A stretch of DNA of 24,526 nt from a virus. Lineage: Duplodnaviria > Caudoviricetes. The stretch spans positions 1-24,526 of IMG/VR virus record IMGVR_UViG_3300044820_000040. The stretch is one strand, 5' to 3'. The notes below the pieces were generated by a model. That model was not told the origin of the DNA and did not search any database. It was given only the letters and a program-made list of their open reading frames with translations. A program made the translations under genes and the position numbers. Shown here piece by piece: positions 3 to 19,845 of the stretch. Within the stretch, counting starts at the first letter, position 1. Each line of letters opens with the position of its first letter.

Positions 3-242
3 GTCTCCGATGGCGCGCGCTGGACGCTAAATGGTTTCTCCCGAGGTTACGCACGAAAGCTTACTGATGCTGGTCTTTTATCCGAAACGCCTGAGCAAAA
101 TCTATATTCTCTGGTCATGGAAGCTCTCGAAGGTTTCGTTATGTGGTTCGACATTGCCCAGCAAAACACTGATAGCGAAGATGGACGAAGGTATGGTACA
201 ACATCGGATGGGCGTAGGTTCTTGACAACGCGGGGTTCGTGA
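3..242 (+). CDS. C-terminal end of probable terminase large subunit (5'-truncated by window)
   Basis: Frame starting at base 3 is open to TGA 240-242 (VSDGARWTLNGFSRGYARKLTDAGLL...LYSLVMEALEGFVMWFD...RRFLTTRGS*). Its stop overlaps the portal ATG (TGATG, 240-244). The slot immediately before the portal is where TerL normally lies. Not in the ORF track. Confidence 0.7.
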   Translation, partial: VSDGARWTLNGFSRGYARKLTDAGLLSETPEQNLYSLVMEALEGFVMWFDIAQQNTDSEDGRRYGTTSDGRRFLTTRGS

Positions 243-2452
243 TGGCTGACACAGAGGACGAAGATAAAAAAACAAAGCTCGATCCGCGCCCGGATAGCGA
301 GCAAGTCTCCGCGCCGTCCGCCGAAGAGGACGAGGACGCTATTGCCGAGGAAGAAAAGAACCTCGACCTTGAGGACCGGAAGAAAGACTACAGTGGGCTT
401 AAAAAAGTTAAAGAGCAGCTTGTTGAGGTGTACGATGCCGTGGTCAAAGGCTTCGAGGATAAGTCCGAGCAAAACAGCGTGGTTGATCGCGCGTGGGACA
501 TGTACAACTGTGTCCTTAATGAAAACCAGATGTATTCCGGTACGTCCGAGATTTATGTGCCACTGGTGCGGGACGCAATCGAAGCGCGTTGCACTCGGTT
601 CACCAATCAGATTTTCCCGCAGAACGGGCGCTACGCAGATGTTGTAGGGCAGGGCGATTTCCCTTGGGACATTACGGCGATCCTCGATCATTATGTGGGC
701 AAGACCAAGCTTAAATCCGTTGTGGTTCCTGCACTGATGCGCGAGGGCGATTGCTCCGGCCAGTACAGTCTGTTTCTTGATTGGACAACCAAAAAGCGCC
801 ACACCGTCAGGAAAATTAAAAAAGCCGAGGTTGTGTCCGAAGAGGGCGTGGACGACCCGGACGCCGATAAATTTGATGATCGTGAATACGAGGAAGTGAC
901 CGAAGAAAAACCCGACGTTGTGGTTTTGGACGCGCGTAACTTGTGCATCTTGCCGACCAATGTGGATGAGGTTGAGGACGCGGAGATCGTCGCTATTGCC
1001 ATGTGGCTGACCAAGGCCGGGATCAAAAAGCGCATTAAAGACGGGGTTTTTGATAAAGACGAGGGCGAGGCCCTGCTTGAAAACTTCGATCAGACCAACT
1101 CGGGCAACACCCAACAGCCGGACGTTGAGAAGAAAGCGGCGAACCAAGCTGGCGTTCGATCCGACAGCAAAGGCACAAAGCGTTGTCTGATTTACCGCGT
1201 ATGGACAAAGGTTAAAATCAAAGGCGAATACCGCCTTATGGACATATTCTTTGCGGGGCAGGACAGGGTTTTGTCGTGCAAGCGCCTCCCCTTCTGGAAC
1301 GATAAAATACCTGTGGTCTCGAAGCCTGTCCTTAAAGTTCCGGGGAGCATCTGGGGTAAGTCCCCATCGGAAGCGGTGGAGAAGCTCCAGTATCAGGCCA
1401 ACGACGCGGTAAACATCGGCATGGACAGCGCACAGTATGCGCTGTTGCCTATTGTTATGACCGATCCGGCCGACAATCCCAAGATTGGTTCGATGATCCT
1501 CGCGCAAGCGGCGATTTGGGAAACCAACCCCAAGTCCACGACCTTCGCGCAGTTCCCGCCCTTGTACAAAGACGCTCTGACGATTGTTGGGGTGTGCAAG
1601 GATCAGATCATGCAGTCGCTCGGGGTGAACCCGGCGATGATGCCCCATGCCTCGGGCGGCGGGGGCAAGAAACCTTCACAGGCTCAGGCCGCGCAGGAAC
1701 AGCAGGTCGCGCTGGAAAGCACTTCGAATGTGGTTTCGATCCTTGAAGAAGGGGTCCTGAACGAGGTTTTACACTGGTTCTACGATATGGATTACCAGTT
1801 CCGTACCAAAGCCATGACCATTCAGAAATTCGGACAGATGGGCCTTCAGGCAGACCTCCAGCAGGTTCCGCTCATTGAGGACAGCGCGCATTATGTGTTC
1901 AAGTGGAATGGGACAGAAGCCAACAAGTCCACACAGCAGGTCCAGCAGATGATCGCGGCCATGAACGTGATCCGAGGCATCCCGCCTGACCAACTGCCCC
2001 CGGGCATGAAAATCGACATCTCGCCAATTCTCGAACACATGGCAGGTGTGGCTTTTGGGCCGCGCTTGGCGCCGAAGGTCCTGATTGACCAGAAACACCA
2101 ACAGACCCTTGACCCAATGGTTGAGAACGAACTTATGGCGAGCGGGTTCCCCGTTCCAGTCCACCCCGGAGATAATGACGCGGAGCATGTTCAGGTTCAC
2201 CAGAAAATGATCGCCATCGACCAGCAGGGCTTTGTTCATCAGCATATTATGGAGCATTTAATGCAGATGAAAAAGAAATCAACCCCTCCCGCCCCTCCCG
2301 GTGGAGGCGGAGCGCCCGGTGTCCCCGGTGGCGCAGGACCCGGTGTCGCAGGAACCCCGCGCATGGGCGCACAGCCCGGTATGCCTCGTCCACAACAGCC
2401 CCCCGGCGCTGTTCATCAGGACCAGATGCCGCTCGCGCCGCCGCGCCGATAA
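242..2452 (+). CDS. Portal protein (podovirus, P22-gp1-like size and position)
   Basis: ~736 aa ORF between putative terL and scaffold/capsid genes. Portal-like segment 'PGSIWGKSPSEAVEKLQYQANDAVNIGMDSAQYALLP', acidic N-terminus, His-rich then Pro/Gly-rich C-terminal tail. ATG 242 is coupled to the upstream stop; GTG 239 is the alternative start. Confidence 0.85.
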   Translation: MADTEDEDKKTKLDPRPDSEQVSAPSAEEDEDAIAEEEKNLDLEDRKKDYSGLKKVKEQLVEVYDAVVKGFEDKSEQNSVVDRAWDMYNCVLNENQMYSGTSEIYVPLVRDAIEARCTRFTNQIFPQNGRYADVVGQGDFPWDITAILDHYVGKTKLKSVVVPALMREGDCSGQYSLFLDWTTKKRHTVRKIKKAEVVSEEGVDDPDADKFDDREYEEVTEEKPDVVVLDARNLCILPTNVDEVEDAEIVAIAMWLTKAGIKKRIKDGVFDKDEGEALLENFDQTNSGNTQQPDVEKKAANQAGVRSDSKGTKRCLIYRVWTKVKIKGEYRLMDIFFAGQDRVLSCKRLPFWNDKIPVVSKPVLKVPGSIWGKSPSEAVEKLQYQANDAVNIGMDSAQYALLPIVMTDPADNPKIGSMILAQAAIWETNPKSTTFAQFPPLYKDALTIVGVCKDQIMQSLGVNPAMMPHASGGGGKKPSQAQAAQEQQVALESTSNVVSILEEGVLNEVLHWFYDMDYQFRTKAMTIQKFGQMGLQADLQQVPLIEDSAHYVFKWNGTEANKSTQQVQQMIAAMNVIRGIPPDQLPPGMKIDISPILEHMAGVAFGPRLAPKVLIDQKHQQTLDPMVENELMASGFPVPVHPGDNDAEHVQVHQKMIAIDQQGFVHQHIMEHLMQMKKKSTPPAPPGGGGAPGVPGGAGPGVAGTPRMGAQPGMPRPQQPPGAVHQDQMPLAPPRR

Positions 2453-3380: not shown

Positions 3381-4727
3381 ATGGCTGTCGCCGTAAATTA
3401 CCAAGGTACGTTCAATTCGGACGTAGAGAGTTACATTGCTGATAAAACCCTCCCGCTGACCCAGCGTCAGTTGGTTGCGTATCAATTTGGCGATCAGCTT
3501 CGTTTGCCTAAGGGCCGAGGTCTGACCTATACGGCTTCGCGCTATGACCGCGTGAACTTGCCGTTCGCACCGCTCTCCGAAGGCGTTCCGCCTACTGGTG
3601 AAGCACTCAACCTCACTCAGGTTACGGCTACCGCGCAACAGTGGGGTGACACGATCACCATTACGGACGTTGCGGACATGACCATCAAGCATCCGCTCTT
3701 CCAGAAAGCCATTGAGCTTATCTCGATGCAGATGGCTGAAACGCTGGAACGCAACACGTTCAACAACCTTCTGGCCGGTACTCAGATCAACTACGTCAAC
3801 TCCCGTGGCGCGCGCGCCTCACTGGTCGCTGGCGACGTTCTGAACCCGCACGAACTGAACCGCGCTGCGGCTTCGCTCTATACCATCGGCGCCCCTCAGT
3901 TTATGGGACAGATGGAAGAAAGCGCGAAGATTGCGGCCGACAAGCCCAATAAGTCCTCGGCGGCGCCGAAGGGTCACTCGCATTACGTCGCGTTGATCCA
4001 CCCTCTGCCCGAGAACGACCTTCGTGAAAACCAAACCATCGTTACCGCTTGGTCGTACAGCGACATCAACCGCTTGTACAACAACGAAATCGGTGAATGG
4101 TCCGGTATCCGCTTCTGTCGCTCGAACATGGTCCCATTCTTCGTGGGTGTGGCCGCTGTCACGGGTACGGCTGCGACGACTGGTTCTTTGGCTACGAACA
4201 ACTACTATGTTCAAGTCACTGGTTCGGTTGCTCAGAACGGCTACGAACAGCGCATCTATCAGGCTTCTGGCTCGGTGGCTGTCACTGGTCCGAACGGCTC
4301 GATCAACGTCACTGTTCCAACGCTGGCTGGCTTTACCTTCAACGTTTATGTTGGTCTGACTTCCAGCCCGACAAACTTGGGTACGTCGCCTTCTGGTCCG
4401 ACCTCGGGTTCGCTCGCGGGTCAGGCTGTCGGCATCCCTTCGGGTTCGACGGTCACGATCACCAACATCGGTATGGCTCGTACGCCTCCTGCGGCTCCGG
4501 CCACGGGTGTCACGGTGTTCCCGACCTTTGTGTTCGGTAAGAACGCTTTCGGTCAGGTTGTCCTTGACGATCCGAAGTTCACCTACCTGAAAACGGCTGA
4601 TAAGAGCGATCCTCTGAACCAGCTTCGCATCGTGGGTTGGAAAGTGATGTACGGTACGCTGATCCAGAACCAAAACTTCTTCATGCGTATTGAAAGCTCG
4701 TCCAACTTTGCGCCTAGCTTCGGTTAA
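3381..4727 (+). CDS. Major capsid protein, N4-gp56-like family (HK97 fold) with an inserted beta-domain
   Basis: 448 aa. Family-type motifs 'QFGDQLRLPKGRG', 'PLSEGVPP', 'QWGDTITITD', 'YVALIHP...DLR', 'EIGEWSGIRF', 'FVFGKNAFG', 'DKSDPLNQLRIVGWK'. Strong RBS and double stop TAATGA. Confidence 0.92.
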   Translation: MAVAVNYQGTFNSDVESYIADKTLPLTQRQLVAYQFGDQLRLPKGRGLTYTASRYDRVNLPFAPLSEGVPPTGEALNLTQVTATAQQWGDTITITDVADMTIKHPLFQKAIELISMQMAETLERNTFNNLLAGTQINYVNSRGARASLVAGDVLNPHELNRAAASLYTIGAPQFMGQMEESAKIAADKPNKSSAAPKGHSHYVALIHPLPENDLRENQTIVTAWSYSDINRLYNNEIGEWSGIRFCRSNMVPFFVGVAAVTGTAATTGSLATNNYYVQVTGSVAQNGYEQRIYQASGSVAVTGPNGSINVTVPTLAGFTFNVYVGLTSSPTNLGTSPSGPTSGSLAGQAVGIPSGSTVTITNIGMARTPPAAPATGVTVFPTFVFGKNAFGQVVLDDPKFTYLKTADKSDPLNQLRIVGWKVMYGTLIQNQNFFMRIESSSNFAPSFG

Positions 4728-10383: not shown

Positions 10384-11181
10384 ATGGCTACTATTGTCCC
10401 ATCGCTTCCGAATAATCTCACTAACGGAACCACAGCCGACGCCACTCAGGTTATGGCGAATTTCAACGCTGTCGTTGCAGCGGTTAATTCCAATGCGGCG
10501 AACTCCGGGGTTAACACCAACATCAACCAGATTGTGGGGTTAACCTCTCCCTTGTCCGTAAATCAAGGCGGGGTAGGGCTTACTTCAATTCCGGCCAACA
10601 GTGTTATGATTGGTGAAGGAACTTCCAATATCAACGTTGCCGCCCCCGGCGCCGCTGGTCAGGTCCTTGCCAGCAATGGCCCCACGAGCGATCCAAGCTT
10701 TCAGGGTGGGTTTGTTCCATCTGGCGTAGGTGTGTGGTGGCCCACGTCCACCCCTCCCGCGAATTGGGTTGAGGCAGCAGGGCAATCTACCTCAGGGATG
10801 TCCACGGCGATCATTGCTTTATATGGATCAAATCTCCCTGATATGCGCGGTGTGTTCCCTCGCGGTTGGGATCATGGTCGTGGACTTGATCCCAACGCCC
10901 CTTCGCTTCTGTCCTATCATGGGGATCAGTTCGCTTCGCACACCCATACGGACGCGGGCCATTTGCACAATATGTACCACCAGCAAGTTCGCGCTGGAAA
11001 CACAGGTAACTATTGGGAAGCTCTTATGAACGGCCTTAACGCTTCGTCGGGCGGGTCGGGGACTAACCCATCAGCCGTTGATACAGGCGGTATCCAGACA
11101 GGCAACGCAAACATTCAGGCCACTGGTGGCTCCGAAACCGCGCCTAAGTACATGCCGTGGATGTTTATTATCAAAACTTGA
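10384..11181 (+). CDS. Tail fibre protein with phage tail-collar domain
   Basis: 265 aa. Collar motifs 'VPSGVGVWWPTSTPPANWVEAAGQ' and 'NLPDMRGVFPRGWDHGRGLD', HxH motifs 'SHTHTDAGHLH', and C-terminal 'ETAPKYMPWMFIIKT'. Confidence 0.88.
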   Translation: MATIVPSLPNNLTNGTTADATQVMANFNAVVAAVNSNAANSGVNTNINQIVGLTSPLSVNQGGVGLTSIPANSVMIGEGTSNINVAAPGAAGQVLASNGPTSDPSFQGGFVPSGVGVWWPTSTPPANWVEAAGQSTSGMSTAIIALYGSNLPDMRGVFPRGWDHGRGLDPNAPSLLSYHGDQFASHTHTDAGHLHNMYHQQVRAGNTGNYWEALMNGLNASSGGSGTNPSAVDTGGIQTGNANIQATGGSETAPKYMPWMFIIKT

Positions 11182-11191
11182 GGAGTGTGTG

Positions 11192-11449
11192 ATGTTGGAG
11201 TATAACGGTCCCGAACGACGATCCGATTGTTGCACAGAAATGACCGGGAGGGTTGCTACCTTGGAGGCTAACCAAAACCACCTTGCGAGTTCTCTCGAAG
11301 AGGTTGTTAAGGACCTGAAAAGCATCGTGATCGACCTTGCTACAAGGAAAGGCGCGGAGAAGCTCGCGCTCGCCGGATTCGGAAGCCTTATGATGTTCCT
11401 TGGGTGGGCGGTTGAACACATGTCCCATGTATCAGCGGTTTTGAAATGA
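11192..11449 (+). CDS. Small coiled-coil + single-TM membrane protein, holin candidate
   Basis: RBS AGGAG 11181-11185 precedes ATG 11192 (85 aa; the track's 11078 start lies inside the fibre gene). Hydrophobic stretch 'LALAGFGSLMMFLGWAV'; ATGA overlap with the endolysin. Confidence 0.6.
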   Translation: MLEYNGPERRSDCCTEMTGRVATLEANQNHLASSLEEVVKDLKSIVIDLATRKGAEKLALAGFGSLMMFLGWAVEHMSHVSAVLK

Positions 11450-11871
11450 GCGTGGATTTTGACAAACTCAAAGCGCAGATTTCTGTTGAGGAAGGCCGAA
11501 AGGGAAAGGTTTATCCAGACCCGCGTGGCGTTCCTACTATCGGCATTGGCCGCAACCTGCGTGATGTGGGGCTTTCAGACGACGAAATTGATTACCTGTT
11601 TAAAAACGACATTTTGCGGGTGACGAATGACATTGCTAAAAATATTCCTTGGGTATTTGGCTTGGACGATGTTCGCCAGCGTGTCTTTTTTGATCTGGTA
11701 TTTAATATGGGAATTACGAAATTACTTACGTTCCAGCACACTTTGGCTTTGGCTAAGGCGGGGGACTTTGCAGGAGCCGCAGACGAGCTTCACCACTCGC
11801 TATGGGACAGCCAAGTTGGTAATCGTGCGCCCAAGCTCGAAGCCATGCTCAAAACAGGAGTTGACCAATGA
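11446..11871 (+). CDS. Endolysin, GH24/T4-lysozyme-like muramidase
   Basis: 141 aa. Catalytic triad spacing E-x8-D-x5-T in 'EEGRKGKVYPDPRGVPTIGIGRNL', plus 'DLVFNMG' and 'SLWDSQVGNRA'. Confidence 0.92.
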   Translation: MSVDFDKLKAQISVEEGRKGKVYPDPRGVPTIGIGRNLRDVGLSDDEIDYLFKNDILRVTNDIAKNIPWVFGLDDVRQRVFFDLVFNMGITKLLTFQHTLALAKAGDFAGAADELHHSLWDSQVGNRAPKLEAMLKTGVDQ

Positions 11872-14895: not shown

Positions 14896-17019
14896 ATGCC
14901 CACTCTGGCCGACCTCCAACGGCTCCGGGACCAGCAAAGTCAGCCGGACCCGGGCATTAAAATCGACGCGCCTCCGCCGCCTGAGAAGGCTATGAGCGGA
15001 CCGACGCTGTCCGACCTGCAAGCTCTGCGCGATAAAAACAAGCCAAAGGCTGCGCCGACACCGCCCGCCGATAAAGGCCCCGGAATTGGTAAGAAGGCCG
15101 CTGGCGTCCTCGCCGCGCCCGGATTTGCCCTCATGCAGACCGCTGGAGAGATCGGGGAGCATCCTATCAAGGGAACCGCCAATATCGTCAAGGACGCCGC
15201 TGTGGGCGGATGGCAGGGGGCAAAGCAAGGCTGGGAGGACCTCAAAAAGGCGGGCCACGCCGGGGCCAAAGCTGTAAGCCCAGACCTGTCCGCGCTTCAC
15301 CGGGCAAAACTTGCCGGGTATGGCCTTTTCAAAGGCGCTCAGGCTGTTGCCGATGTGCCGATGGGCGTATTGGAAAACACTTATGGCAAACGGGCCTCCG
15401 AAGGCTCCGCGATGGTCAACGATGGGAAGCCCCTGATTTCCCCGTCCTCGGCTTCGATCCTCCCATCCATGATGGTTGGTGGGAAAAAGAAAATTGCCGA
15501 AGAAGCCAAGACTTTCGCCGGGGCCGCGCAGCGGTTTGGTATGGATTTTTCCAAAGCAAAAGAGCCTTCGGACATTGCTGTCGAGGTTGGACGCGCCACG
15601 AAAGAAAACGTACAGAAGCTTGCTAACCTCATTTGGGACAGGTCCCCCAAGACGGCGGATATTAACAAACCCGGGGAAGTGGCTTCGAACGCGATCAAAA
15701 ATTTCCAATCGCGTAAAGGCGAAGAGAGCGCCCTGTGGTCACAGTCCGAAAACATGGGGAATAAAATCCCCGTGGATGTTAAACCCCACGTTGAGCAGTT
15801 ACAGGACCTTCGCAAAGCCGTCGCCGCGCGGATCGCCTCGGGAGAGGACACGCCCGACGTTAAAAAGGCTCAGGCCCTCATTGACCGCGTTCTTGGGGAG
15901 CTTGGCTCGCCCACGCAGCCGGAACAACAAATCATCGAGAAAACCAAGGAAGTCGGCGGGATCACAAAGACCACTCAGAGGGAGCGGCAGTTCCCGCAGG
16001 ACGCAGGACAGACCACCGTCAAAGAGGTCGAGCCAACGACCCAAATGGGCGGAAAAAAGTTCTCGGAAACCAGCCAGACCCCCGTGGAGACAAACACCAA
16101 CGTCAATGATAAGACCCGGACAACTACGCAAAGCCCGTACACGGTTACACAGCGGACAGTCAAAGGCGAGGCTCCAAAACCCGCGCGCGCAGCTACCGCA
16201 GGAGATATTGTCCGCGCGCGGCGCGCAGCGAACGACGGGCTTTACCATACCGCCGACAGGGGCGTGACCGGGGAGGTAAAAGATGTCCTCAATGGCGCTC
16301 TCTCCGATGTGGGTAAAAAAGAAAAGTCTTTTGCCAATGTCCACCAGAAGGCGCTCCAGAAAACCCAATCCAACGCGGATATTTACCGCGACGACGCGAA
16401 GGCGGCGAAGTTCGGCTTTGACGAGGAAACGCTTAACGCGCTCGGCGCGAAGATGCGGCAGGGCCGGGAAATCCCCACGGCTGTCCTTGAGAAAATCAAC
16501 GCGGGCGTGGACCAGATCAAAACTCCCGAGGACCTGCTATTTTTGAAGCGCACCCTCGACAAGCAGCAGTTTTCTATGGCGATGCGGGCGAAAGCCGCCG
16601 CCATTCTGGACGAAGCGGGTACGGACATTAAAAAAGTTGTGGGCGAGCGCCCCATGCTGGAAAAGATTTATGAACTCTCGGGGTTCCCGAAGGAGAAATA
16701 CACTCAACAGCTTGACGACCTGCAAGCCGTGGCCCGCGAGATGGACCATTACAATATTCCGTCCATGCCTCAGGTTGGCCCGGGCGTCGAGAAAGCCAAA
16801 TCCCGCATGCAGAGCCTCGTCAAGGCGCTCACTCTGGGCATGGCCTATTCGAACCCCAAACAGATGTTCTACCACCTCGGTCAGGCCGTGGCGCCCGCCG
16901 ACACTAACGCTGAACTGGCTCTTAAAGCCCTGAAAGGCCGCGCGAACCCGAAAGCTCCTACCAACATCCCCGGCGCCGCCATCGGTGGCGTCCTCAGCGG
17001 AACGGACAAACAGCAATGA
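14896..17019 (+). CDS. Probable internal virion / DNA ejection protein 3
   Basis: 707 aa, Ala/Lys/Gly-rich, predominantly helical-looking. RBS GGAGG; largest and last gene of the trio. Confidence 0.6.
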   Translation: MPTLADLQRLRDQQSQPDPGIKIDAPPPPEKAMSGPTLSDLQALRDKNKPKAAPTPPADKGPGIGKKAAGVLAAPGFALMQTAGEIGEHPIKGTANIVKDAAVGGWQGAKQGWEDLKKAGHAGAKAVSPDLSALHRAKLAGYGLFKGAQAVADVPMGVLENTYGKRASEGSAMVNDGKPLISPSSASILPSMMVGGKKKIAEEAKTFAGAAQRFGMDFSKAKEPSDIAVEVGRATKENVQKLANLIWDRSPKTADINKPGEVASNAIKNFQSRKGEESALWSQSENMGNKIPVDVKPHVEQLQDLRKAVAARIASGEDTPDVKKAQALIDRVLGELGSPTQPEQQIIEKTKEVGGITKTTQRERQFPQDAGQTTVKEVEPTTQMGGKKFSETSQTPVETNTNVNDKTRTTTQSPYTVTQRTVKGEAPKPARAATAGDIVRARRAANDGLYHTADRGVTGEVKDVLNGALSDVGKKEKSFANVHQKALQKTQSNADIYRDDAKAAKFGFDEETLNALGAKMRQGREIPTAVLEKINAGVDQIKTPEDLLFLKRTLDKQQFSMAMRAKAAAILDEAGTDIKKVVGERPMLEKIYELSGFPKEKYTQQLDDLQAVAREMDHYNIPSMPQVGPGVEKAKSRMQSLVKALTLGMAYSNPKQMFYHLGQAVAPADTNAELALKALKGRANPKAPTNIPGAAIGGVLSGTDKQQ

Positions 17020-18338
17020 GGATTTTAGTTATCGACAGCAACGCCTCGGCGCTCGATTGGACCATGCGCTGCATTGCGGACGGACACCAAGTAAAATGGT
17101 ATGTGCCTCCCAAGGATATAGGCCCCCGGGATTTTTATTCTCATGTGGGCAAGGGCGTCGTTGAGCGCGTGGATAACCCCCATGATTGGTATCGCTGGGC
17201 AGATTTAATTTTATTCACGGACAACACCAAACTTATCCACCTTGCGGACGCTTGGCGGAAGCAGGGCTGGCCTGTGATCGCGCCGTCTATGGAGACTGCC
17301 GCGTGGGAGCTTGACCGTGATTTAGGTACAAAAATCTTCAAAAAAGCCAAGGTAAAAACCATAGAAGGAAGGGGCTTCCATGACTACGACACTGCCATCT
17401 CCTACGTCGAAAAAGAAATGGAACGTTTTGTTTCGAAACCCAGCGGTGATGCTGACAAGGCGCTGTCCTACGTCGCCAAAAGCCCCGAGGACTTGGTTTA
17501 CATGCTCAAGCGGTGGAAGAAAAACAACAAACTCAAGGGGGACTTTATCCTCCAGAGGTTTGTCGGCGGGATAGAAATGGCTGTCGGCGGGTGGTTTGGA
17601 CCGCAGGGGTTTAACCAAGGCTGGTGTGAAAATTGGGAATTTAAAAAGCTAATGAACGATGATCTTGGCTGCGCCACGGGCGAGCAGGGGACCGTTGTCC
17701 GTTATGTGAAAAAGAGCCTGTTGGCAGAGCGGGTATTAAAACCCGTCGAGGACCAGCTTCACGCAGCGAACTATGTCGGCTATGTGGACGTGAACTGCAT
17801 CATTGATGAGGACGGAACACCGTGGCCCCTTGAATTTACCATGCGCCCCGGCTGGCCGCTTTTTAACATCCAGCAGCCCTTGCACACCGGGGACCACGCA
17901 GAGTGGCTCTACGACCTCGCAATGGGCAAAGACGCCAAGAATTTCAAGCTTAACGAAGTGGCCGTGGGTGTGGTATTATCCATTCCTGACTACCCCTATA
18001 GCCAGATCACCCGCAAGGATGTGCTAGGGGTCCCCGTGTACGGATTTGAAGAAAATGAGGACTTGCACCCATGCGAAATGATGAAGGGCATAGCCCCACA
18101 GGAGAGGGATGGGAAGATAGCGGATTTACCCTGCATGGTGACGGCAGGGGACTACGTTCTGGTGGCAACCGGGACGGGACAGACGATTTCTTCGGCGCGG
18201 GGGAAGGCTTACCGGACATTGAAGAAGCTCAAGGTTCCGAACAGTCCAATGTATCGGACGGATATTGGAAAACGCTTGCTCAAACAGTTGCCGGAACTGA
18301 CCAAGATGGGGTACGCGTCCGGGCTGGTTTACCAGTAG
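17016..18338 (+). CDS. PurD (GAR synthetase)-like ATP-grasp ligase with divergent substrate motifs
   Basis: 440 aa with PurD-like architecture: 'MRILVID', 'AAWELDRDLGTKIF', 'FVSKPSG', 'FILQRFVGGIEM', 'EFKKLMNDDLGCATGEQG', 'YVGYVDVNCII...PWPLEFTMRPGWP', 'TAGDYVLVATGTGQTISSARGKAY', 'MYRTDIG'. ATGA overlap with the upstream gene. Confidence 0.88.
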   Translation: MRILVIDSNASALDWTMRCIADGHQVKWYVPPKDIGPRDFYSHVGKGVVERVDNPHDWYRWADLILFTDNTKLIHLADAWRKQGWPVIAPSMETAAWELDRDLGTKIFKKAKVKTIEGRGFHDYDTAISYVEKEMERFVSKPSGDADKALSYVAKSPEDLVYMLKRWKKNNKLKGDFILQRFVGGIEMAVGGWFGPQGFNQGWCENWEFKKLMNDDLGCATGEQGTVVRYVKKSLLAERVLKPVEDQLHAANYVGYVDVNCIIDEDGTPWPLEFTMRPGWPLFNIQQPLHTGDHAEWLYDLAMGKDAKNFKLNEVAVGVVLSIPDYPYSQITRKDVLGVPVYGFEENEDLHPCEMMKGIAPQERDGKIADLPCMVTAGDYVLVATGTGQTISSARGKAYRTLKKLKVPNSPMYRTDIGKRLLKQLPELTKMGYASGLVYQ

Positions 18339-18610
18339 AAGTCACCACCCTTGAAAGTCTGATTGCGCCCGCTTTCCGTGTCCTCAAAGAGACTATGGAG
18401 ATCGAAATACATTTGGACGATCCCAATTACGCTCGCCTTGTTTCCGCGCGCAAGGACGCAGCCGTGGCTACGCTAAATGCCGCCCTTAAAGCGGACGAAA
18501 ACCAGTTCAAAAAGCGGAATAACGTTGTCCTCGAAAAACTGCTCGCGGAAATTCGAAAGGCCAAAGAACCTTTAACAATCGAGCAAAAGCCTCACCAAGC
18601 CGGAATATAG
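18071..18610 (+). CDS. Hypothetical protein overlapping the last 268 nt of the PurD-like gene
   Basis: GAGGA 18057-18061, 9 nt before ATG 18071. No other in-frame ATG/GTG/TTG until 18395. Acidic Gly-rich N-half in the overlap, amphipathic helical C-half beyond it. Confidence 0.65.
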   Translation: MRNDEGHSPTGEGWEDSGFTLHGDGRGLRSGGNRDGTDDFFGAGEGLPDIEEAQGSEQSNVSDGYWKTLAQTVAGTDQDGVRVRAGLPVEVTTLESLIAPAFRVLKETMEIEIHLDDPNYARLVSARKDAAVATLNAALKADENQFKKRNNVVLEKLLAEIRKAKEPLTIEQKPHQAGI

Positions 18611-19293
18611 CGGGTTGTGCCGTTGTCGTTAATCGGTATCCATTTGGTAGGGTTGCCCACCGCAGGAGCGTTTGTCAGGGTCCCCGCGTTAGCCGCCGCG
18701 CCGTTGGTCAGAGCCACAGAAGTTGTCAGAAGGGTCGTGGACCCGACAGTTACACCCGTGGACACAATTACGTTACCGCCCGTGGGCTGTAGGTTGATGT
18801 TCCCCGAAACGGTCTGGAGGGTAAGCTGGGCGTAGTTTGTTCCGCCGTTGATACCCGCGTCCGAACCTATATAGGCTTGGTTGGTGCCGCCCGATTGAAT
18901 TTTAATGAAACCGCCGAAGCCGGAAGCAACCTGAGAATTGACCGCCACTGTGCCTTGACCAACCGCGTTCGAAGCCGTCAAAACGTTGGCCGTAATAGCT
19001 GCCGGGGGTGCTGTGCCGCCGATGGACGGGGGCGAGGCCATATAGTTCGTGAAACCCGTACCAGAAACGGTGCTGGAAGCCGCCAGAGTGGTGAAAGAAG
19101 CCGCGCCGCCAGCGCCGACAGCGCCAAGGGCCGTAAGAGCCGCAGCAGCCGTAACCGCGCCTGTCCCACCTTGGGCAATGGGGAGGCCAGAAGAGCTATT
19201 CGCGCCGCCCGCCTGAGTGTTTAGCTGGTTAATCAGCCATTGGATCGCATCGTTGTCGGAGAGGTTGGCAGGGAGTGCGGGAATTACGGCCAT
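18592..19293 (-). CDS. Fibre/appendage-like virion protein
   Basis: 233 aa, A/G/T/N-rich and nearly uncharged. Fibre motif 'LPIAQGGTGAVTAAAA' and C-terminal 'GTLTNAPAVGNPTKWIPINDNGTTRYIPAW'. RBS AGGAG 6 nt before ATG. Confidence 0.75.
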   Translation of the reverse strand: MAVIPALPANLSDNDAIQWLINQLNTQAGGANSSSGLPIAQGGTGAVTAAAALTALGAVGAGGAASFTTLAASSTVSGTGFTNYMASPPSIGGTAPPAAITANVLTASNAVGQGTVAVNSQVASGFGGFIKIQSGGTNQAYIGSDAGINGGTNYAQLTLQTVSGNINLQPTGGNVIVSTGVTVGSTTLLTTSVALTNGAAANAGTLTNAPAVGNPTKWIPINDNGTTRYIPAW

Positions 19294-19595
19294 AGGTTGC
19301 TCCTGATAACGTCGAGTTTAAGTACACAGGCTTTCAATGCCTGATCTTGCTGGACAATGAATGATGCCACACAACTGTCCGTTTTACAATCGGGAACATC
19401 AGGGATTGGGACAGGGGAAAAAAGCTCAATGGGCGGGAGCAGCTTTTCCGTTTTGGTTTCCAGAACCGGAGTTTGTCCCGCGCATCCAAGCAAGAGTGTC
19501 AGCAAGGACAGGGCGAATAGGCCCGTCGCTAGATGCCGGAGAAGCCTTAATTCGGTCAAGCTGAGTTTGCGCGTTAACCGCGATCTTAAGCGCAT
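19284..19595 (-). CDS. Outer-membrane spanin (Rz1-like lipoprotein)
   Basis: RBS AAGGAG 7 nt before ATG 19595. Basic N-region, hydrophobic h-region, lipobox 'LLLG/C', Pro-rich mature part ('LLPPIELFSPVPIPDVP') and three further Cys. Starts inside the i-spanin gene. Confidence 0.85.
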   Translation of the reverse strand: MRLRSRLTRKLSLTELRLLRHLATGLFALSLLTLLLGCAGQTPVLETKTEKLLPPIELFSPVPIPDVPDCKTDSCVASFIVQQDQALKACVLKLDVIRSNLWP

Positions 19596-19845
19596 TGTCT
19601 TTCTCCTTCTGAACAGAGGCCAAGTCTCGTTTGTTCTTTTCTTGAAGGTCGGAAATAGTGCGCTCGTATTGGTCGTGCTGGACTTGCGCGTCGGCCTTTT
19701 GCTGTTTGATTATTTCTGCCTGTCCACCATAGGCTTTAATGCCGTAGATGCCGGACACAATGGCCGCTGTGAGGGCTGCGAATAAGCCGATCTTGGCCCA
19801 AGGCAACCCTCCAGCGAAACCAATGAGGTTGGTGAGGAAACCCAT
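19426..19845 (-). CDS. Inner-membrane spanin (Rz-like)
   Basis: 139 aa, N-terminal TM 'IGLFAALTAAIVSGIYGI' then coiled coil. Overlaps the lipoprotein gene by 170 nt in another frame. Confidence 0.85.
   Translation of the reverse strand: MGFLTNLIGFAGGLPWAKIGLFAALTAAIVSGIYGIKAYGGQAEIIKQQKADAQVQHDQYERTISDLQEKNKRDLASVQKEKDNALKIAVNAQTQLDRIKASPASSDGPIRPVLADTLAWMRGTNSGSGNQNGKAAPAH

Follow-up and report, generated by a model that had tools for sequence, protein, structure and literature searches.

Where does the small gene that follows a PurD-like ligase gene in an environmental tailed-phage-like virus begin: after the stop codon of the ligase, or inside the ligase gene itself? The question is raised by the IMG/VR virus record IMGVR_UViG_3300044820_000040. 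The DNA analysed, all 24,526 nucleotides (nt) of it and referred to here as the window, is a 24.5-kb fragment whose completeness is put at 58% (CheckV). Its PurD-like ATP-grasp ligase gene is crossed in the -1 frame by an open reading frame (ORF), 18071-18610, that shares 268 nt with the 3' end of the ligase and continues for 272 nt beyond it. We predict that the ORF is a real overlapping gene whose translation likely starts from a ribosome-binding site of its own, within the ligase 3' end. Across the family, translation of the -1 frame through the end of the ligase is highly probable, and for the window itself a product that starts at 18071 is the likely outcome.

The -1 frame and its start among ligase relatives

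The elements from which the first-pass annotation argued for an overprinted gene are all present in the sequence, namely a -1-frame TGA (18056-18058) ahead of the ORF, a Shine-Dalgarno (SD)-like GAGGA, the ATG at 18071, the division into 268 and 272 nt, and the lack of a further ATG, GTG or TTG in the frame until an ATG at 18395. A second long ORF in another same-strand frame across part of an established gene, which is how an overprinted gene is first recognised, is therefore found here with 268 nt shared. The annotation had held the overlap to be real and had proposed a search for -1-frame stops at homologous loci. Ligase relatives for this comparison were 80 of the 147 IMG/VR matches (L002-L081) together with the GenBank phage MW202796.1 (L001); L081, which is without the ligase 3' end, was left out, leaving 81 entries composed of 80 relatives and the window.

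The -1 frame is free of stops over at least the last 274 nt of the ligase in 65 of the 81 entries, termed open, and runs on for 230-330 nt beyond the ligase stop into a domain homologous across loci. The remaining 16, termed closed (L001, L051, L053, L056, L063, L067-L072, L075, L076, L078-L080; guanine-cytosine (GC) content mostly 0.37-0.48), carry -1 stops at 4-58 nt from the ligase stop. When a profile of the downstream domain was applied to 82 sources, 64 matched, 63 of them contiguous with the ligase and one forming a separate gene (L080), and every one of the 63 contiguous-domain loci belongs to the open set. The 18 sources without a domain match consist of 15 closed loci, the open locus L042, L077 (cut by the contig end) and L081. 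L042 is a case of its own, being, L077 aside, the sole open locus without the domain: its -1 frame is open for 328 nt at a GC content of 0.62, and its 35 downstream codons (L042:4311-4421) are unlike the C-terminal domain.

When the last 90 ligase codons are shuffled synonymously, 0.2-4.7 stops are expected per open locus, and none occurs in any of the 56 unique open loci (0 in 56/56); the 13 unique closed loci carry 3-16 stops, near the expectation from the same shuffles. For the relative L002 alone, the chance of finding no stops is 0.0045. Over the 145-154 overlapped codons of the 49 unique loci with a long ORF, 132.5 stops are expected and 0 observed, while the upstream two-thirds of the same 49 ligase genes contain 456 -1 stops in 14,389 codons (3.17%). 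Because the loci are diverged (median pairwise ligase identity 57%, exceeding 90% in just 16 of 1128 pairs) and their synonymous sites are near saturation (third-position identity 0.500 vs 0.465 at unrelated positions), shared ancestry fails to explain the stop avoidance or the start signal described below. As judged from these counts, the -1 frame is kept open by selection, far beyond the expectation from codon usage. A second mark of an overprinted gene, a frame kept open among diverged relatives to a degree that codon usage and the first-frame protein do not account for, is present here, and the earlier claim that the overlap is real is borne out.

The open frame also carries an initiation signal. 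An ATG (49 entries) or GTG (6 entries) stands in the -1 frame at a single ligase column, 436-463 nt ahead of the ligase stop, in 55 of the 65 open entries. From this start the ORF is intact and encodes 222-290 amino acids (aa) where the locus is complete; in L077, truncated by the contig end, it encodes 186 aa. The ATG is formed by the last base of the codon preceding an invariant Trp, and in the 56 unique open loci the codons around it depart from the genes' own codon usage. Where the pre-Trp codon is one for Glu or Gln, its last base is A in 46 of 52 cases (17.4 expected). For the Gly four codons upstream, GGA is used in 26 of 51 (6.0 expected), and for the Asp that follows, GAT in 34 of 56 (17.5 expected). 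Combined, these choices give GGAGAT-N9-ATG; none of them is enriched in the closed set (13 loci). Among the 19 loci whose ligase GC content is at most 0.57, the nearest upstream in-frame stop lies a median of 15 nt (0-114) before the conserved start. A conserved initiation signal belonging to the second frame is thus found in two versions, ATG/GTG with GGAGAT in the family at large and SD, 9 nt and ATG in the clade of the window. The family version is, by its codon-level pattern, what a real gene start lying within the ligase should look like.

In the window the family start column holds a GTG at 17903 without an SD, and this start is dead because -1 stops follow it at 17951, 17987, 17999, 18047 and 18056. 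The window shares with L002 and L017 (75-81% ligase identity) an SD (GAGGA or AGAGGA; L002 has AGAGGA where the window has GAGGA), a 9-nt spacer and an ATG at the Pro-Cys of HPCEMM. In two homologues from the databases, P0001 (177 aa) and P0039 (182 aa), both of this clade, the first residue is the Met that the window encodes at 18071. The lineage of the window would accordingly be one that lost the ancestral start and took up the secondary start at 18071. The long form has been lost at other loci too, where the frame has an SD and start of its own nearer the ligase stop (GAGGA with GTG at -247 in L019; ATG at -202 in L032), and in L043 and L064-L066 an ATG coincides with the ligase stop (TGATG) and is followed by an extra basic N-terminal segment. 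Overlap length therefore varies (0, ~67, ~82, 89 or 145-154 codons) over a constant C-terminal domain, and the 89-codon overlap of the window is, on this comparison, a shortened version of the 145-154-codon overlap of most relatives.

The proposed explanation is that ribosomes initiate at internal SD and ATG sites within the ligase gene. The resulting protein would have a new, disordered and sequence-unconstrained N-terminal part of 89 residues (145-154 in most relatives), overprinted on the ancestral C-domain of PurD, and would continue into an older, ordered C-terminal domain.

The downstream domain and the alternative starts

The domain beyond the ligase stop, a conserved helical hairpin of ~85 aa that a large family of small phage proteins has in common, has the consensus ..LAL....EIL...L......F...L..K...A...L....RVDE..LR....D.L..LL. 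An AlphaFold2 model of the 90 residues past the stop has a mean predicted local distance difference test score (pLDDT) of 86; in it, the helix formed by residues 5-20 packs against a long one formed by residues 31-76. When the full 179-aa ORF is modelled, residues 1-90 remain at pLDDT 43-55 without secondary structure and helices at 94-110 and 120-165 reach pLDDT 81-96, the ordered domain starting exactly where the overlap ends. The pattern of the first helix, LAL..A.EIL, is conserved in 49 aligned sequences. That conserved helix begins at the ligase stop, and many loci have no ATG, GTG or TTG between the two; in L016 the first available start lies 45 codons in. The earlier description of a genuine helical protein past the ligase stop agrees with this conserved domain and its confident model, which loses helix 1 if begun at 18395, and the description of the overlapped part as disorder-like agrees with the low scores of residues 1-90.

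An alternative to the internal start is that only a short form of 71 aa is made, from the ATG at 18395, and that the open -1 frame is due to chance or composition. A number of points weigh against the internal start, and some of them favour the short form directly. Taken alone, the window has a non-significant open frame, since 2.38 -1 stops are expected in the last 90 ligase codons and 7.4% of 2000 synonymous-codon shuffles contain none (P 0.074), and other genes of the window have stop-free off-frame stretches of 300-530 nt. GC-rich relatives would often be stop-free by chance (P(0) 0.2-0.8 per locus). The ATG of the window straddles a Pro-Cys junction of the ligase (ccA TGc), where many relatives have CTG, and GAGGA derives from ligase Glu-Asp codons, so that the start signal of the window could be a by-product. 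The overlapped peptide is, by the comparisons given in the next section, one with almost no amino-acid constraint, and the second frame is attested only by stop avoidance and the start signal. The public gene call for this sequence begins at 18395, its exact 71-aa version being in the public record, and Met is common near this column in relatives. Finally, the virus is uncultured, a look-up of RNA runs for 17000-18700 listed none, and the case for translation is computational.

Against the short form stands the domain itself, from which a start at 18395 would delete helix 1 with its conservation in 49 sequences and pLDDT of 90-97. The SD duplex is also far weaker before ATG 18395 (-1.7 kcal/mol) than before ATG 18071 (-6.0 kcal/mol), the column is TTG in L002 and Ile-Leu, a non-start residue, in P0039, and chance would have to account for 0 stops in place of 132.5 across the 49 loci. 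Translation of the short form only is quite improbable. The short call from 18395 is better regarded as truncating the fold because the conserved helix 1 lies upstream, and the public record that has this form, in the ESM Atlas, holds the window protein only from residue 20 of the post-ligase part, that is, from ATG 18395. More generally, since the gene likely starts 89 codons inside the ligase, post-ligase gene calls probably cut off part of the protein; calls in the family span 65-244 aa, and the one for this sequence removes a helix.

A start after the ligase stop could also be made at a non-canonical codon (CTG 18359 or ATT 18362, for example) by re-initiation, with only the part beyond 18338 translated. 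The usual coupled arrangement is indeed found where the ligase is missing, the small gene there overlapping the preceding gene by 1-4 nt, and L043 and L064-L066 have TGATG at the ligase stop. Re-initiation nevertheless offers no reason for a stop-free -1 frame in the ligase or for the conserved SD and ATG, and at 18359 or 18362 it would still clip helix 1. It is very unlikely to be the explanation.

The third possibility, a programmed -1 ribosomal frameshift that fuses the helical domain onto the ligase in the style of dnaX or lambda G/GT, draws on the position of the downstream part in the -1 frame of the ligase, a frame that stays open through the junction in 65 of 81 entries. SD-like sequences within genes can also stimulate -1 shifts, as in dnaX, and were counted in its favour. 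A frameshift is unlikely because no slippery heptamer is conserved: of the 58 unique open loci, no more than 4 have an X XXY YYZ heptamer in common at any one alignment column, and the window ligase has none. Nor does a frameshift need the enriched A that makes the ATG or a properly spaced SD, and the frame opens just before that ATG. In L080, moreover, the ORF stands alone with no more than a 3' remnant of the ligase, and there are family members without any ligase. The frameshift is the reading to which we attach the least probability, and internal initiation remains the one adopted in what follows.

The overprinted segment and the small-protein family

The -1 frame is the younger of the two, since homology of the ligase frame to cellular PurD extends as far as residue ~420. 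At synonymous codon pairs, third-position identity in the overlap is 0.526 vs 0.500 upstream in open loci and 0.461 vs 0.484 in closed ones. Between L080 and L030, the 439-nt overlap has 30 differences, which amount in the ligase frame to 16 synonymous and 10 non-synonymous codon changes and in the ORF frame to 1 synonymous and 22 non-synonymous changes; in the C-domain the two differ by one residue and a tail indel. By these comparisons, selection appears to act on the ligase protein, the C-domain, the internal start and the absence of stops, and not on the overprinted residues. A disordered N-terminal segment would behave in this way if its presence or length counted and its sequence did not.

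L080 also presents a natural rearrangement of the locus. First comes a ligase from a different lineage, which has -1 stops, then a minus-strand Endonuclease_7 gene (Pfam E 1.3e-19), and last the 3' third of an L030-like ligase; this remnant carries an intact overlapping ORF of 245 aa. Homology to L030 starts ~15 nt before the conserved ATG, at the SD, with unrelated sequence upstream, so that the unit retained is, as far as the alignment tells, the ORF plus its ribosome-binding site. The region as a whole (L080:2935-5573) looks like a homing-endonuclease-associated replacement with its junction at the ribosome-binding site of the ORF.

In ~11 of 49 long forms (L026, L028, L030, L034, L036, L046, L049, L052, L055, L059 and L062), the overprinted sequence begins with ~18 residues that make up a basic, helix-like motif, MAG[KR]P.RRAR.AAL, and basic N-termini are also seen in the free-standing homologues P0051, P0076 and P0077. 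It is possible that this motif marks a local constraint on the new frame. Two further homologues, P0005 (169 aa) and P0013 (167 aa), retain a ligase-derived N-terminal motif, MAG.P.RRA.., with the middle ~100 residues missing, and P0005 additionally retains the last ~20 residues of the overlap; they may come from phages that deleted the ligase. The contigs of P0005, P0013 and P0003 were not found in the collection scans, where one locus (L089) matched over 26 residues only.

A profile search of 1.84 billion representatives identified 1165 members of the family at E <= 0.001 (516 at E <= 1e-10). All have the domain at their C-terminus; they are 65-244 aa long, and gene callers have placed their starts inconsistently. 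Among 151 proteins (the best 150 and P0001), 20 match the ligase-overlap peptide at the N-terminus and 131 do not. The 90-aa part had no tblastn match in phage GenBank records, in which the only close ligase relative, MW202796.1, belongs to the closed set. A FastTree phylogeny of 162 C-domains has ligase-overlapping and other forms interleaved; it is poorly resolved, and truncated gene calls confound the order of events.

The small gene also occurs without the ligase. In five IMG/VR loci (L082, L084-L087), the ligase was found neither in the locus nor in the whole record, two of the five records being 100% complete and the positive control of the ligase search succeeding in 3/3 cases. Four of these genes encode 134-161 aa, and in L086 the frame is open for 269 codons. 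In the four mapped loci (L082, L084, L086 and L087), the plus-strand genes end with the small one, which lies ahead of a convergent primase-helicase and follows a protein of 900-1100 aa, which it overlaps by 1-4 nt in three of the four; this arrangement equals the synteny of the window minus the ligase. The converse is found in five whole closed-set records with a ligase, in which the C-domain was not detectable (positive control 4/4). These include a 100%-complete record of 49 kb and MW202796.1, deposited as a complete circular genome.

This distribution bears on the proposal of the first-pass annotation that the overlap locks the two genes together, the product being partner or substrate of the ligase. 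Gene overlap does enforce co-transcription and co-inheritance, and it is kept in 63 loci. Each gene nevertheless occurs alone, complete records included: five loci have the small gene without the ligase (two of the records 100% complete), and five ligase records are without a detectable small protein (one 100% complete, one deposited as complete). The operon place of the small gene is unchanged in ligase-less phages, and 131 of 151 family proteins are without the ligase-derived N-terminus. Because each occurs without the other, ligase and small protein are not obligately coupled and their overlap need not mean a functional partnership, so the proposal is not supported in the form given; an overlap that exists for the sake of an obligate partner or substrate is unlikely, and the small protein is probably no obligate partner of the ligase. 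Co-folding of the ligase (A5) with the ORF (A6) had a score of 0.00 and a mark of 0.32, which speaks neither for nor against binding.

As to function, the ORF and its C-domain had no usable match in Pfam, PHROGs, NCBIfam, PDB sequences or the ESM Atlas, and the C-domain model (pLDDT 86) had no Foldseek match at E <= 0.001 in BFVD or PDB. Among 48,161 chains compared by VIA-align, the highest Z was 6.0, for generic helical hairpins; the hairpin resembles parts of many oligomeric assemblies, and does so only generically. A small-terminase-like role had also been suggested. It finds no family or fold match here, nor any terminase match among the 24 ORFs scanned in this 58%-complete fragment, and the small gene has as its neighbours the ligase and a convergent ORF, not a large terminase gene. 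The guess that we consider most likely, held with low confidence, is a role in virion assembly or in association with the virion, because the gene has a fixed place last in the late (virion) operon, after presumed internal-virion proteins, in ligase-less relatives as well.

The forms of the locus could, more tentatively, be arranged as a natural series of de novo protein birth, a reading that we hold possible though somewhat less probable than its negation. An old small gene would have extended its N-terminus by overprinting a captured PurD-like C-domain, with stages of 145-154 codons (most relatives), 89 codons (the window) and ~67-82 codons (L032, L019), and lastly a free-standing 'ghost' that still carries ligase-derived sequence once the ligase frame had become superfluous or been lost by deletion (L080, and perhaps P0005 and P0013). 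If this is true, the ghost segment is a new protein region that outlived the gene on which it was written, and confirmed ghost forms would be dated intermediate stages in the origin of a de novo protein segment.

Gene layout and comparison with known systems

The window has the layout of a tailed phage, and the coordinates of its features are collected in Table 1. Between the lysozyme and the ligase, the plus strand encodes an acetyltransferase and three large proteins without annotation. The convergent ORF marks the end of the plus-strand late operon, and no terminator-like site lies between it and the small gene at their junction (18592-18610). The minus strand carries an Rz/Rz1-like pair and a DUF927 primase-helicase. 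The Rz1-like LysC ORF (19284-19595, minus strand) and the ORF at 19426-19845 (minus strand) overlap by 170 nt, a second same-strand overlap in the window; overlapped spanin genes are the usual arrangement of Rz/Rz1. Rfam had no match within 17000-19400. A promoter and terminator scan of 17700-19400 returned 2 promoter-like sites (0.7 expected) and 3 terminator-like sites (2.2 expected), nothing of which was usable. A weak sigma-70-like site, TTAACG-18-TATTAT with TG (17950-17979, plus strand), lies in the ligase ~90 nt before ATG 18071.

Table 1. Coordinates of the overlapping gene, its elements and other features of the window.
Feature	Position	Strand	Remarks
Overlapping ORF, 179 aa (predicted gene)	18071-18610	+	-1 frame of ligase; ends with TAG 18608-18610
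Dual-coded stretch, 89 codons	18071-18338	+	Predicted-disordered N-terminal part of the small protein
Shine-Dalgarno-like GAGGA	18057-18061	+	9-nt spacer to ATG 18071; anti-SD duplex -6.0 kcal/mol
Relic of the family start (GTG)	17903-17905	+	Without SD
Helix 1, ORF residues 94-110	18350-18400	+	pLDDT 81-97 in the two models; mostly before ATG 18395
Long helix 2, ORF residues 120-165	18428-18565	+	Motif K.DAA...L...LK.DE..F
Alternative start ATG	18395-18397	+	Met 109, end of helix 1; 71-aa product without helix 1; used by public call
PurD-like ATP-grasp ligase, 440 aa	17016-18338	+	Older reading frame; Pfam GARS_A, GARS_C
Portal	239-2452	+	
Major head protein	3381-4727	+	
Tail fibre	10384-11181	+	
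Lysozyme	11446-11871	+	
Convergent ORF, 233 aa	18592-19293	-	3' end overlaps last 19 nt of small gene; no family match

The ligase itself is to be compared with cellular PurD, or glycinamide ribonucleotide (GAR) synthetase (TIGR00877; PDB 2yw2, 5vev, 1gso). The phage ligase has the ATP-grasp A and C domains of that enzyme, with Pfam scores of 27.4 bits for GARS_A (PF01071; cutoff 27) and 35.8 bits for GARS_C (PF02843; cutoff 34.8; residues 316-420), and its family profile aligns over the full length with solved PurD structures (E 1e-26). Unlike cellular PurD, it is located in a phage late operon and scores 85.7 bits against TIGR00877, for which the equivalog cutoff is 288. Because it falls so far below that cutoff, the ligase is, by its profile scores, PurD-like and not a PurD equivalog.

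Overprinting is already known as a kind of gene origin, and the present case appears to be a new and well-supported instance of it. A full-text literature search, judged at the level of search results, found no overlapping gene in a phage PurD-like or ATP-grasp gene. Comparative support for long out-of-frame overlaps (~90-150 codons) in tailed phages is rare and such claims are often disputed; several independent signals, namely stop avoidance, a codon-level start signal, a domain without another start and a natural rearrangement, make this locus a clean candidate for experiment.

Among same-strand gene pairs in phages, a close analogy is with the lambda-type Rz/Rz1 genes, where Rz contains all or part of Rz1 and the products act jointly. 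Common to both pairs is one DNA strand read in two frames from separate starts. Unlike Rz/Rz1, only the N-terminal part of the small protein is overlapped here, the overlapped part appears unconstrained, and the two genes occur independently.

Overprinted genes are familiar from small viruses, with B, K and E of phiX174 and many examples in RNA viruses. The novel frame of such genes is said, in work by Rancurel et al. of 2009, to tend towards disorder. The present locus is like these in that an ancestral frame, the PurD C-domain, carries a younger one with a product predicted to be disordered. It differs in its host, a tailed-phage-like genome of ~42 kb without obvious size pressure, and in that an overlap of 89-154 codons adds no more than an N-terminal extension to an older, free-standing gene.

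Programmed -1 frameshift products, as in lambda G/GT, T7 10A/10B and dnaX, share with this locus a downstream -1-frame segment that passes the stop of the upstream gene. Unlike in those systems, there is no conserved slippery heptamer here, a conserved SD and ATG are found instead, and the segment also exists as an independent gene.

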